A stretch of DNA of 64,000 nucleotides from Escherichia coli. Its GTDB lineage: Bacteria > Pseudomonadota > Gammaproteobacteria > Enterobacterales > Enterobacteriaceae. Made by a program: the position numbers and the translations under genes. Within the stretch, counting starts at the first letter, position 1; each line of letters begins with the position of its first letter. This document shows positions 4,447-58,638 of the stretch, piece after piece. Where the stretch lies: NCBI RefSeq assembly GCF_003790525.1, contig NZ_CP033635.1. One strand, given 5' to 3'. Below the pieces are notes generated by a model, which searched no databases, was not told the origin of the DNA, and saw only the letters and a program-made list of their open reading frames with translations.

Positions 4447-5051
4447 TGGCTCTGCATGACGAAAACGTCGTCTGGCATAGCCACCCAGTCACTGTGCAAC
4501 AACGCGAGCTACACCACGGTCATCGTGGTGTAGTGCTGTGGTTTACCGGCCTCTCCGGGTCCGGTAAATCAACGGTCGCCGGGGCGCTGGAGGAGGCGTT
4601 ACATAAACTTGGCGTCAGTACGTATCTGCTGGATGGCGACAACGTTCGCCACGGATTATGCAGCGATCTCGGTTTTAGCGATGCCGACCGTAAAGAGAAT
4701 ATCCGTCGCGTCGGTGAAGTGGCGAATTTGATGGTTGAAGCCGGACTGGTGGTGCTGACCGCATTTATCTCGCCACACCGCGCCGAACGCCAGATGGTTC
4801 GCGAACGCGTAGGAGAAGGGCGCTTTATCGAAGTGTTTGTCGATACGCCGCTGGCGATTTGCGAAGCCCGCGATCCAAAAGGCTTATATAAGAAAGCGCG
4901 TGCCGGTGAACTGCGTAACTTTACGGGAATAGATTCTGTTTACGAAGCGCCTGAATCGGCAGAAATTCATCTCAATGGTGAACAATTAGTAACAAATTTG
5001 GTACAGCAATTATTAGATCTGTTGAGACAGAACGATATTATCAGATCCTGA
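4446..5051 (+). CDS. cysC: Adenylylsulfate (APS) kinase
   Basis: 201-aa ORF with P-loop GLSGSGKST; ATAATGG stop/start overlap with cysN. Confidence 0.95.
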
Positions 5052-57676: not shown

Positions 57677-57704
57677 TTGACTTATAAGTCTCAGAAAGTA
57701 ATAT
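57677..57704 (+). promoter_or_regulatory. Candidate sigma-70 promoter of the tRNA-Ser/tRNA-Arg operon
   Basis: -35 TTGACT, 16-bp spacer, -10 TAATAT, then GC-rich discriminator GTGCGCC typical of stable-RNA promoters. Confidence 0.55.
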
Positions 57705-57766: not shown

Positions 57767-57859
57767 GGTGAGGTGGCCGAGAGGCTGAAGGCGCTCCCCT
57801 GCTAAGGGAGTATGCGGTCAAAAGCTGCATCCGGGGTTCGAATCCCCGCCTCACCGCCA
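57767..57859 (+). tRNA. serV: tRNA-Ser (anticodon GCU)
   Basis: 93-nt sequence GGTGAGGTGGCCGAGAGGCTGAAGGCGCTCCCCTGCTAAGGGAG...CGCCTCACCGCCA with long variable arm and encoded CCA. Confidence 0.95.
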
Positions 57860-57862
57860 TTT

Positions 57863-57939
57863 GCATCCGTAGCTCAGCTGGATAGAGTACTCGGCTACGA
57901 ACCGAGCGGTCGGAGGTTCGAATCCTCCCGGATGCACCA
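57863..57939 (+). tRNA. tRNA-Arg (anticodon ACG), copy 1
   Basis: 77-nt GCATCCGTAGCTCAGCTGGATAGAGTACTCGGCTACGAACCGAGCGGTCGGAGGTTCGAATCCTCCCGGATGCACCA. Confidence 0.95.
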
Positions 57940-58003
57940 TCTCTTACTTGATACGGCTTTAGTAGCGGTATCAAAAAATCTGCAGTAAAGTAAGTTTCCC
58001 GAT

Positions 58004-58080
58004 GCATCCGTAGCTCAGCTGGATAGAGTACTCGGCTACGAACCGAGCGGTCGGAGGTTCGAATCCTCCCGGATGCACCA
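58004..58080 (+). tRNA. tRNA-Arg (anticodon ACG), copy 2
   Basis: Identical 77-nt sequence. Confidence 0.95.
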
Positions 58081-58142
58081 TCTCTTACTTGATATAGCTT
58101 TAGTGGCGGTATCAATATCAGCAGTAAAATAAATTTCCCGAT

Positions 58143-58219
58143 GCATCCGTAGCTCAGCTGGATAGAGTACTCGGCTACGAACCGAGCGGTCGGAGGTTCG
58201 AATCCTCCCGGATGCACCA
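58143..58219 (+). tRNA. tRNA-Arg (anticodon ACG), copy 3
   Basis: Identical 77-nt sequence. Confidence 0.95.
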
Positions 58220-58282
58220 TCTCTTACTTGATATGGCTTTAGTAGCGGTATCAATATCAGCAATAAAATAAATTTTCCCGAT

Positions 58283-58359
58283 GCATCCGTAGCTCAGCTG
58301 GATAGAGTACTCGGCTACGAACCGAGCGGTCGGAGGTTCGAATCCTCCCGGATGCACCA
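58283..58359 (+). tRNA. tRNA-Arg (anticodon ACG), copy 4
   Basis: Identical 77-nt sequence. Confidence 0.95.
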
Positions 58360-58473
58360 TCTTCTCCGTAATCTTCAGCAATGAAGATATCGAAGAGGTA
58401 GCGGTATTAACCGCAGGCACCAGGGAGGATAACGCCGGCCAGCAACGGCCCGAAGGGCGAACGCCAGTGAGTC

Positions 58474-58499
58474 ATCCTCCCGGATGCACCATCTTCTCC
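58474..58499 (+). repeat. Direct repeat of the tRNA-Arg 3' end (18 nt) plus 8 nt of downstream flank
   Basis: ATCCTCCCGGATGCACCATCTTCTCC repeats the sequence at 58342-58367 (end of tRNA-Arg copy 4 and its 3' flank). Confidence 0.85.
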
Positions 58500-58638
58500 A
58501 AAAAATTTCCTTCAAAAATATCTCATTTCTAAATAACTACTTTATCCATTTCCTGAATTTTCTTCTCCTTCGCCATCAGCGACAAAATCAAGCAATTACG
58601 CTAAAGTAGCGTCATATTTTTCGACTTGCGAGAAGACC

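Follow-up and report, generated by a model that had tools for sequence, protein, structure and literature searches.

A tRNA 3' end that is repeated just downstream of a tRNA array raises the question of whether a mobile element once integrated there, whether a tRNA gene has decayed there, or whether the repeat belongs to something else. We addressed this question at the csrA / serV-argV-argY-argZ-argQ / yqaB locus of Escherichia coli SMS-3-5, to which the window (the whole stretch of 64,000 nucleotides analyzed) belongs. A first-pass annotation of this DNA had interpreted the repeat as the footprint of site-specific integration or excision, or of a decayed extra tRNA unit. We conclude with good confidence that the second copy of the repeat is the 3' end of a 132-nt module, and that this module is a short, terminal, and partly decayed member of the RtT family (Rfam RF00391).

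The tRNA-Arg array and its direct repeat

The description of the array as four identical 77-nt tRNA-Arg(ACG) genes in units of about 140 bp was confirmed by ARAGORN, Rfam, sequence identity, and spacing. The four gene sequences are identical (4/4), each scores 67.1 bits with the Rfam tRNA model, and they start 141, 139, and 140 nt apart. The tRNA-Ser gene, with which this operon begins, lies outside the coordinates given in the first-pass annotation. The features of the operon are as follows.

57677-57704, + strand: candidate operon promoter, TTGACT / 16 nt / TAATAT, about 60 nt upstream of tRNA-Ser (consensus scan only)
57767-57859, + strand: tRNA-Ser(GCU), serV, first gene of the operon (ARAGORN; Rfam tRNA, 56.8 bits; RefSeq annotation of the identical SMS-3-5 record)
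57863-57939, + strand: tRNA-Arg(ACG) copy 1 (ARAGORN; Rfam tRNA)
58004-58080, + strand: tRNA-Arg(ACG) copy 2, after a plain 64-nt spacer, 57940-58003 (ARAGORN; Rfam tRNA)
58143-58219, + strand: tRNA-Arg(ACG) copy 3, after a plain 62-nt spacer, 58081-58142 (ARAGORN; Rfam tRNA)
58283-58359, + strand: tRNA-Arg(ACG) copy 4, after a plain 63-nt spacer, 58220-58282 (ARAGORN)
58360-58491, + strand: RtT-like module, short form, terminal copy, 132 nt, composed of trailer, hairpins, and tRNA 3' fragment (decomposition into units)
58474-58491, + strand: copy of the last 18 nt of tRNA-Arg, from the final two T-loop bases to CCA, ATCCTCCCGGATGCACCA (direct-repeat comparison, unit decomposition)
58492-58499, + strand: copy of the 8-nt trailer TCTTCTCC, completing the 26-nt repeat (direct-repeat comparison)
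58492-58590, + strand: C-rich, G-poor tract (C 27 / G 4 in 99 nt), candidate Rho-utilisation region (composition count)
58598-58621, + strand: intrinsic-terminator-like site, ACGCTAAAGTAGCGT then CATATTTTT, the sole such site between the module and yqaB (consensus scan)

The 26-mer ATCCTCCCGGATGCACCATCTTCTCC is found exactly twice, at 58342-58367 and 58474-58499, as had been reported for a 26-bp repeat of the tRNA 3' end and its flank about 115 bp downstream; 100 shuffles of the sequence gave zero matches. The first copy consists of the last 18 nt of tRNA-Arg copy 4 followed by the 8-nt trailer, and the ends of the remaining three tRNA-Arg genes show 3 mismatches to the 26-mer, all within this trailer. 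The second copy begins 114 nt past the end of the last tRNA. The bracketed segment, said to be about 100 bp long and without a gene, proved to be 106 bp (58368-58473), with no ORF of at least 20 aa except frames continuing across the tRNA genes and repeats. Likewise, no credible ORF was found in or around 58360-58491. This 132-nt stretch directly follows tRNA-Arg copy 4 on the same strand, and the direct repeat exists because its 3' end matches that of the tRNA exactly, in both the final 18 nt and the trailer that follows.

Predicted fold of the module and its probable relation to RtT

The predicted layout of the module starts in the trailer, continues with two hairpins (P1 and P2), and leads to a long stem, P3, in which GCACCAGGGAGGAT would pair with the 18-nt copy of tRNA-Arg. 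P3 would imitate the stacked acceptor and T stems of the tRNA, leaving ACCA single-stranded, and would enclose P4, P5, and P6 at the position of the T loop.

58371-58388, + strand: P1 hairpin, ATCTTCA / GCAA loop / TGAAGAT (fold)
58401-58414, + strand: P2 hairpin, GCGGT / ATTA / ACCGC (fold, pairing alignment)
58417-58430, + strand: P3 5' strand, GCACC-A-GGGAGGAT, predicted to pair with the tRNA-derived 3' strand at 58474-58487 (fold)
58434-58446, + strand: P4 remnant, GCCGG-CCA-GCAAC (alignment; unpaired cells at these pairs)
58448-58458, + strand: P5 hairpin, GCCC-GAA-GGGC, conserved more strongly than any other family element (fold, alignment, HMM match)
58459-58473, + strand: degenerate P6 region and junction GAACGCCAGTGAGTC (alignment)

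The SMS-3-5 module folds at -53.5 kcal/mol (z = -3.8), and a second fold gave -66.1 kcal/mol (z = -6.5). In the module alignment, 94.8% of cells are paired, compared with 27-47% when the partners are slid. For P3, the figure is 97% (18 sequences), and GCACC-A-GGGAGGAT with ATCCTCCC-GG-A-TGC makes 13 predicted pairs that resemble the coaxial acceptor and T stems of tRNA-Arg. It should be noted that this complementarity might be inherited from the stems of the tRNA itself and is therefore no proof of a functional RNA structure. Changes on both pairing sides were seen in P1, P2, and P6. P1 is kept in other genera with a different sequence (both-side changes at 2 pairs), loci L137 and L138 and that of E. 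cloacae have GCGA/TCGC as the counterpart of P2, and P6 reads GCC-GCAA-GGC or GGC-GCA-GCC in internal copies (both-side changes at 2 of 3 pairs). The SMS-3-5 copy retains P5 and the junction; its P6 is lost and its P4 is damaged, differing by two substitutions and a 1-nt deletion from the GTTGC-GCCA-GCAAC of K-12, while all of these elements are intact in internal copies from K-12 and other genera. Identity between genera is 80-95% for the core and 59-91% for the plain spacers.

The link to RtT was established for the SMS-3-5 module only through the better-preserved copies of K-12. The Rfam RtT model gave no match to the SMS-3-5 copy alone at E <= 10; with the K-12 copies it gave 22.8, 31.0, and 29.2-33.5 bits (E = 1.6e-4 to 0.07), all below its gathering score of 45 bits, in an alignment that covers the P4-P5-P6-junction region. 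A 19-nt module pattern retrieved elements after tRNA-Lys, tRNA-Pro, and tRNA-Arg(CCG) in other genera, and these score 70-101 bits with the same model. In most members with a checkable upstream tRNA, the 3' end of the element equals the last 18-19 nt of that tRNA, and each element has a complementary 5' strand whose sequence changes with the host RNA. An HMM built from the RtT cores of other tRNAs matches 58433-58477, and our own model of the Arg module, R1, has one match in the window, at 58360-58499. Since the comparison loci were picked with a core-containing pattern, the nhmmer and R1 E-values are not independent tests and were set aside.

Could the module instead be a fifth tandem unit of spacer and tRNA-Arg in which mutations have built up everywhere but at the 3' end? 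The spacing of the repeat, 132 nt, keeps it in register with the 139-141-nt period of the array, the plain-spacer motif GTAGCGGTAT recurs in the bracketed segment, and the P3 5' strand GCACCAG-GGAGG is similar to a fusion of two tRNA 5' strands, GCATCCG of the acceptor stem and GGAGG of the T stem. However, outside the shared 18 nt, the global alignment to spacer plus tRNA is no better than with shuffles (z = 1.4), and the 5' 59 nt of the tRNA aligned to the module core gave z = -0.4. No tRNA was called on the module by ARAGORN or the Rfam tRNA model. The middle of the bracketed segment is homologous to the RtT cores of unrelated tRNAs, and well-preserved copies of the module lie between functional tRNAs in other strains and genera. 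A decayed tRNA unit, one of the two origins first proposed, comes closer to the data than integration does, yet we consider it very unlikely.

If the RtT-like module behaves as rtT RNA does in tyrT, it would be co-transcribed with the tRNAs, its tRNA-like 3' end would be cut and trimmed by the tRNA 3'-processing enzymes, and a small tRNA-like RNA would be released. Both its processing and any function are inferred. The module is probably dispensable, as some strains are without any copy. By analogy with tyrT, the C-rich tract at 58492-58590 may act in termination. The intrinsic-terminator-like site downstream of it is a weak candidate because one such site was found against 1.6 expected by chance.

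Variation among strains and the question of mobility

Modules differ in number and position among E. coli strains. With T for a tRNA unit and M for a module, the order in K-12 is T M T T M T M (three modules, after argV, argZ, and argQ), and the arrangements TTTT M, T M T M T M T, and TT M are found in other strains; some strains, such as Br_167, have no module at all. The module unit measures 132-135 nt, up to four modules are found between tRNA genes in one operon, and strains 15.TR.026, E. coli C, and ZYB39 each have an operon with identical modules at two positions. The bracketed segment was detected in 5357 of 5426 E. coli genomes (98.7% of complete genomes), at 1-6 places per genome (median 3); these 12816 places, counted genome-wide rather than by operon position, are all chromosomal. 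Exact empty sites were identified at L002, L003, and L136, and also at L132, with the trailer variant TATTCTCC. The modules of the Arg operon have no annotation in RefSeq because their scores fall below the Rfam threshold.

What survives of the scar interpretation is the presence or absence, from strain to strain, of the unit enclosed by the repeats; this unit is not a one-off, but belongs to a conserved RtT-like family. In a tandem array, such presence and absence is explained by unequal homologous recombination. As tRNA units and modules share their ends, modules are gained, lost, or shifted by this process or by slippage, as the comparison between strains shows.

For integration, the scenario would be that an element carrying a copy of the tRNA-Arg 3' end integrated at the argQ T loop and subsequently disappeared, so that about 106 bp of its end remain between attL- and attR-like repeats. 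The identity blocks usually seen at tRNA integration sites of T-loop-type integrases run from the T loop to the 3' end and its flank; the 26-nt repeat has the same extent, and presence and absence of the unit coincide exactly with the repeat boundaries. However, a search across E. coli for strains with an island between the repeats, proposed in the first-pass annotation, found none in 5409 of 5425 genomes, where the operon flanks are joined within about 2 kb (operon span of about 450 to 1280 nt). Of the 16 genomes with unjoined flanks, the lowest-ranked one was inspected, and it sits at a record start. In addition, modules lie between the tRNA genes as well as after them, as many as four times per operon, and the family of the bracketed segment follows six other stable RNAs, always without a nearby integrase in the loci read.

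The other check proposed was for similarity to the attachment sites of integrative elements, and it gave no phage or viral-contig match to the bracketed segment. The phage matches cover whole tRNA-Arg genes only, and the segment was not found as a phage attachment site. Among the plasmid matches, records that are very large or of chromosome size prevail, all of them typed as non-mobilizable; three smaller Klebsiella records (14-128 kb) have partial matches and stand outside this negative result. No core of the Arg-ACG type was present among 2.9 million viral contigs. The core scan of these contigs returned 25 stretches, mostly chance matches in coding sequence. Six contigs contain a core and a tRNA 3' fragment of the Tyr or Lys type, some of these fragments being decayed or cut off, and two of the six show tRNA genes in view; one further contig has a Dickeya-type core copy and no tRNA fragment. 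The joined flanks, the intra-operon copies, the lack of an att match, and the family membership largely refute an integration scar, which we regard as extremely improbable.

We also considered that the module might be one copy of a structured element, mobile or selfish, whose P4-P5 core spreads between stable-RNA genes and elsewhere. The core follows tRNAs of six kinds as well as 5S rRNA genes, and in Alcanivorax and Pseudomonas it forms tandem 74-nt units that are interspersed and have no neighboring tRNA. Moreover, the Tyr and Lys forms have the core exactly inside the copy of the T loop (TTCGA, insert, AT). Against this, we saw neither a transposase or integrase nor a terminal inverted repeat or clear target duplication, every one of the E. 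coli places is chromosomal in the genome-wide count, and spread within an operon is explained by unequal recombination. Such an origin seems unlikely for the module. Also unlikely, and speculative, is that the Arg module is one face of a wider family in Gammaproteobacteria, found at the 3' sides of stable RNAs. Members of this family may have the hairpins AACGYYGC-loop-GCRRCG and then RCCCGAAGGGY, with tRNA-Tyr, -Lys, -Arg, -Pro, and 5S rRNA as hosts; the hairpins may each time be followed by a copy of the 3' end of the host RNA, with a strand complementary to that copy ahead of them. Such a family, if true, would imply a mobile or templated mechanism, or a factor that binds the core and acts on the 3' ends of stable RNAs.

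Comparison with known systems

The finding is modest, as the operon is well known in E. coli and this kind of element has been known since the work on tyrT. It does mean that a repeat of a tRNA 3' end inside a tandem tRNA array need not be the footprint of an integrated element and can mark an RtT-type module. The Arg form, a minihelix mimic with three hairpins, would be a minimal RtT and a route to the function of RtT, and strains with 0 to 6 copies offer natural knock-outs for effects on tRNA-Arg2 maturation or on the starvation response.

With the attL/attR pairs left at tRNA genes by T-loop-type tyrosine integrases, the locus shares the repeat of the tRNA 3' end and the presence/absence at its boundaries. 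Unlike them, it lacks an integrase, and more than 99.7% of E. coli genomes have no island there; a single operon can hold several copies, and their content is structured and conserved.

Spacer-derived RNAs are known from tRNA operons, for example the 3' external transcribed spacer of glyW-cysT-leuZ. Like these, the module would be a processing by-product, possibly persisting as a small RNA. However, spacers of the glyW-cysT-leuZ type are unique and base pair with sRNAs, whereas the Arg module is repeated and tRNA-like and has no known partner.

The closest known system is RtT, given in PMC3318445, with reference to Bosl & Kersten 1991, as the 178-bp repeats of the tyrT operon. A 2024 preprint (10.1101/2024.07.17.603846) states that how RtT acts is unknown. 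We found no papers on the Arg modules in the searchable literature, and an earlier account is possible, for example in the original operon sequencing papers. Both elements lie in tRNA operons, co-oriented with the genes, between and after tandem tRNA genes (tRNA, RtT, tRNA, RtT x3 in tyrT of K-12), and both vary in copy number. RtT of tyrT also ends with the terminal 18-19 nt, CCA included, of the tRNA before it, and has a 5' strand that pairs with this fragment; the P4 (CGTTGC..GCAACG), P5 (CCCGAAGGG), and P6 hairpins and the GAGTMATCC junction are shared as well by the internal Arg copies, of which the SMS-3-5 copy keeps P5 and the junction intact. In contrast, the Arg module is without the 5' half of the RtT model (GAUGAGAAcCUUCGaccaAGGUuCGAgucgAGCGaAGcgAGA), and approximately positions 23-57, the second T-arm-like piece, and a small hairpin are missing from it. 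It has P1 and P2 hairpins of its own instead, with tRNA-Arg(ACG) as host. Between the P3 5' strand and P4, the Arg-ACG form has AAC, and the Rfam alignment shows deletions and mispairs there. The Arg module further differs in its sub-gathering scores and in being known here at the DNA level.

The short architecture has parallels in units after tRNA-Lys in Citrobacter youngae and Pseudescherichia vulneris (L105, L111), where a GGATAAC junction runs straight into P4. These units are the best non-Arg matches of R1, at 61.6, 60.3, and 55.1 bits (the 60.3-bit match is partial, covers model positions 64-123, and is also in L105), and they differ from the Arg module in host tRNA and P3 sequence.

The tRNA operon and its direct repeat

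The window matches E. coli SMS-3-5 (NC_010498.1) at 100% identity, and the feature lies in the locus alaS-csrA / serV-argV-argY-argZ-argQ / yqaB-yqaA-gshA; its tRNA array is the already known argVYZQ cluster. The following genes were predicted by ARAGORN:

57767-57859, tRNA-Ser(GCU)
57863-57939, tRNA-Arg(ACG), copy 1
58004-58080, tRNA-Arg(ACG), copy 2
58143-58219, tRNA-Arg(ACG), copy 3
58283-58359, tRNA-Arg(ACG), copy 4

The first-pass annotation had described identical tandem tRNA-Arg(ACG) genes followed by a 26-nt repeat of the tRNA 3' end, and both ARAGORN and exact repeat matching confirmed this. The four genes are sequence-identical, with plain spacers of 64, 62, and 63 nt between them. 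The 26-mer ATCCTCCCGGATGCACCATCTTCTCC, composed of the final 18 nt of tRNA-Arg and a trailer of 8 nt, occurs exactly at 58342-58367 and 58474-58499 and in none of the shuffled sequences. The trailer downstream of argQ is TCTTCTCC in SMS-3-5 versus TATTCTCC in K-12, which is why the repeat identity is 26/26 rather than 25/26.

Copy number and arrangement of the module

In K-12, the spacers following argV and argZ are 198 nt long, compared with 62-64 nt for plain spacers, and the gap following argQ does not differ from that of SMS-3-5. When the operons were split wherever the tRNA 3' end occurs, two kinds of units emerged: T, a plain spacer plus tRNA (139-141 nt), and M, a module of 132-135 nt with the same terminal 18 nt as T.

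Unit arrangement of the operon in the strains compared
SMS-3-5: T T T T M
K-12: T M T T M T M
ZYB39: T M T T M T M T M
KE40: T M T M T M T + decayed M
AVS0970: T T M
RIVM_C039227: T M T T T'
Br_167: T T T T' (module-free)

These operons hold 2 to 5 tRNA-Arg copies, and module copy number and position differ between strains by whole units. In 15.TR.026, E. coli C, and ZYB39, one operon holds identical modules at two positions, which shows recent duplication of T+M blocks. Where a strain lacks the terminal module, its sequence is exactly that predicted by loss of one repeat unit (...GGATGCACCATCTTCTCCAAAAAATTTCC). Modules and tRNA units have their final 18 nt in common and similar trailers, and unequal homologous recombination or slippage would account for the whole-unit changes in copy number and position, the exact empty sites, and the identical duplicated blocks that were found.

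The 106-bp bracket between the two repeats was matched in 5357 of 5426 complete E. coli genomes, always on the chromosome, at 1-6 places each (median 3), and no annotated feature covered it at any of these places. The module is probably dispensable, since the other 69 complete genomes have no bracket match.

Some rearranged forms were also observed. A 102-nt hybrid spacer, consisting of the module trailer and a P1-like hairpin joined to a plain spacer, precedes the last tRNA-Arg at locus L002 (7056-7157; also L003, L007, and L008) and is apparently a deletion derivative of the module. Two enterobacterial assemblies (L137 and L138) contain a decayed module within the first spacer, and a BON-domain gene of 104 aa lies between their tRNA operon and yqaB (4707-5021 and 4570-4884, respectively).

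The repeat had initially been read as the scar of a site-specific integration or excision, or as a decayed extra tRNA unit. For the former, the two unique operon flanks (1567 + 1601 nt) were searched in 5425 E. coli genomes and matched as a single joined place in 5409, so the flanks are at most ~2 kb apart there. The matched spans listed range from 3621 to 4446 nt, a variation due solely to the number of T and M units. The flanks were unjoined in 16 genomes, and the only one viewed, the lowest-ranked (NZ_CM169491.1), has its match at the record start. In E. coli C, the extra DNA lies upstream of csrA and outside the tRNA operon: an IS3-family (ISSen4-like) element sits between csrA and alaS (L010, 1055-2175).

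As for attachment sites, the phage records matched whole tRNA-Arg genes only, save one misfiled Salmonella contig. Plasmid matches were mostly to chromosome-sized or very large records, all typed non-mobilizable; three smaller Klebsiella records matched partially. Across 2.9 million viral contigs, the core motif matched 25 stretches, none with an Arg-type core: six have a core of Tyr or Lys type with a tRNA 3' fragment after it (some are decayed or truncated), with tRNA genes in view in two of these contigs, and one is a Dickeya-type copy. We therefore rejected the integration scar, based on the joined flanks in 5409 of the 5425 genomes and on these phage, plasmid, and viral-contig matches.

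A simple decayed fifth tRNA unit was rejected as well. Outside the common 18 nt, global alignment of the module to a spacer plus tRNA was no better than shuffles (z = 1.4), as was that of the tRNA 5' part (59 nt) to the module core (z = -0.4).

Predicted structure and expression

The internal K-12 module is predicted to fold at -66.1 kcal/mol (z = -6.5), and the SMS-3-5 module at -53.5 kcal/mol (z = -3.8). P1 is a predicted GNRA-loop hairpin directly after the trailer, P2 a small hairpin, and P3 a 13-pair helix (GCACC-A-GGGAGGAT with ATCCTCCC-GG-A-TGC) within which three hairpins, P4, P5, and P6, are predicted. Since P3 encloses these hairpins and leaves ACCA unpaired, it is, in this model, a mimic of the stacked acceptor and T stems of tRNA-Arg, with the three hairpins in the place of the T-loop.

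In a set of 18 distinct Arg-type modules (E. coli, E. cloacae, Kosakonia, and further enterobacterial assemblies), pairing was found in 94.8% of the cells, versus 27-47% with the partners slid, and both-sided changes occur at P1, P2, and P6. P3 is nearly invariant in this set because the tRNA is invariant. It should be noted that the complementarity of the P3 strands in different hosts could derive from the stems of the tRNA itself and is thus no proof, on its own, of selection on the RNA. Between genera, identity is 80-95% for the module core, 59-91% for plain spacers, and 56-82% for the module 5' part.

The SMS-3-5 module, the ortholog of the K-12 copy following argQ, occupies the terminal position. 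It has no Rfam RtT match because its P4 carries two substitutions plus a deletion of 1 nt and its P6 is lost. In the other loci read, the most decayed copies are also terminal ones.

The module is likely co-transcribed with the tRNA operon. The sole promoter-like site lies upstream of serV (57677-57704), and no terminator-like site was found before 58598. On the yqaB side of the module, 58492-58590 (99 nt) is C-rich and G-poor (27 C, 4 G) and resembles a Rho-loading region, of which it is a candidate. As the module ends in a helix, ACCA, and a tRNA trailer, its 3' end would be processed by tRNA 3'-end enzymes. A small tRNA-like RNA would then be released, as is reported for the rtT RNA of tyrT (Bosl & Kersten 1991, as cited in PMC3318445 and 10.1101/2024.07.17.603846).

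Relation to RtT and the wider family

The K-12 tyrT operon has the layout tRNA-Tyr, RtT, tRNA-Tyr, RtT x3, and its repeats, labeled 'RtT sRNA' in RefSeq, score 133-137 bits against the RtT model (RF00391). Since about 1980, tyrT has been a known example of repeats terminated by a tRNA 3' end, and Rfam lists RtT as a family. The three K-12 Arg modules score 29.2-33.5, 31.0, and 22.8 bits (E = 1.6e-4 to 0.07) over the P4-P5-P6-junction region, below the gathering score of 45 bits. The Arg-ACG short form is below the Rfam threshold and without RefSeq annotation, and no publication on it was found in the openly readable literature searched.

A 19-nt core pattern (GCRRCGRCCCGAAGGGYGA) scanned over one genome per species matched at least 120 stretches. 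About half of the matches listed are chance occurrences in GC-rich coding DNA; the others listed lie downstream of tRNA-Tyr, tRNA-Lys, tRNA-Arg(ACG), tRNA-Arg(CCG), tRNA-Pro(UGG), and tRNA-Pro(CGG). The hosts listed for these tRNA-linked elements are Enterobacterales and other Gammaproteobacteria, with Arg(ACG) elements in E. cloacae and Kosakonia. Lys, Pro, and Arg(CCG) elements exceed the RtT threshold (70-101 bits). Most elements whose upstream tRNA was checkable end in its final 18-19 nt, and each contains, further upstream, a strand complementary to the tRNA fragment: GGGAGGAT for Arg-ACG, GGGGAAGGGT for Tyr, GCGGGGT or GTCGTGCGG for Lys, AGAGGAT for Pro, and CTGGAGGG for Arg-CCG. A covariance model built solely from Arg-type modules found a single site in the window (58360-58499) and also recovered the Lys, Pro, Arg-CCG, and Tyr elements, with E-values that are not independent, as the loci were preselected by pattern.

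The core was also observed in other settings. In Siccibacter, Superficieibacter, and Budvicia, the P4-P5 core lies directly downstream of complete 5S rRNA genes (L121, 205-345; L024, about 100-230; L112, L118, and L120), preceded by a copy of GAGAGTAGG and the strand GGCAGTT, and with the 5S 3' end repeated after it (AACTGCCAGGCAT). This is the RtT rule extended to 5S rRNA; Rfam at gathering thresholds did not report these copies. In Alcanivorax sp. 24 (L123-L130), Pseudomonas subflava (L122), L087, and L085, the core lies within a ~74-nt four-hairpin unit, which is found in tandem and is present at eight or more loci of one Alcanivorax genome. No tRNA was found near the two of these loci passing the tRNA check or near L087, and tRNA genes lie no more than about 1.5 kb from L085; the units look like an interspersed repeat family with an RtT core. 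In Dickeya oryzae, the core is followed by GAGTAACGCAGCCAACACACCTGCAAC at four loci of one genome (L055-L058; also L152), and no tRNA was detected near these four.

The Arg modules and tyrT RtT have in common ...AACGTTGC-loop-GCAACG-RCCCGAAGGGCGA-hairpin-GAGTAATCC, and in each the 3' end of its own tRNA comes next. Compared with RtT, the Arg-ACG module is a short form lacking ~35 model positions, in which AAC comes after the complementary strand and leads into P4. Short forms of a similar kind lie downstream of tRNA-Lys in Citrobacter youngae and Pseudescherichia vulneris. In Lys and Pro RtT units (L045, 314-480; L054, L062, and L110), an intrinsic-terminator-like hairpin and U run come straight after the tRNA 3' end, so the module there would sit past a terminator, whereas in the Arg-ACG form a GNRA hairpin lacking a U run takes that position.
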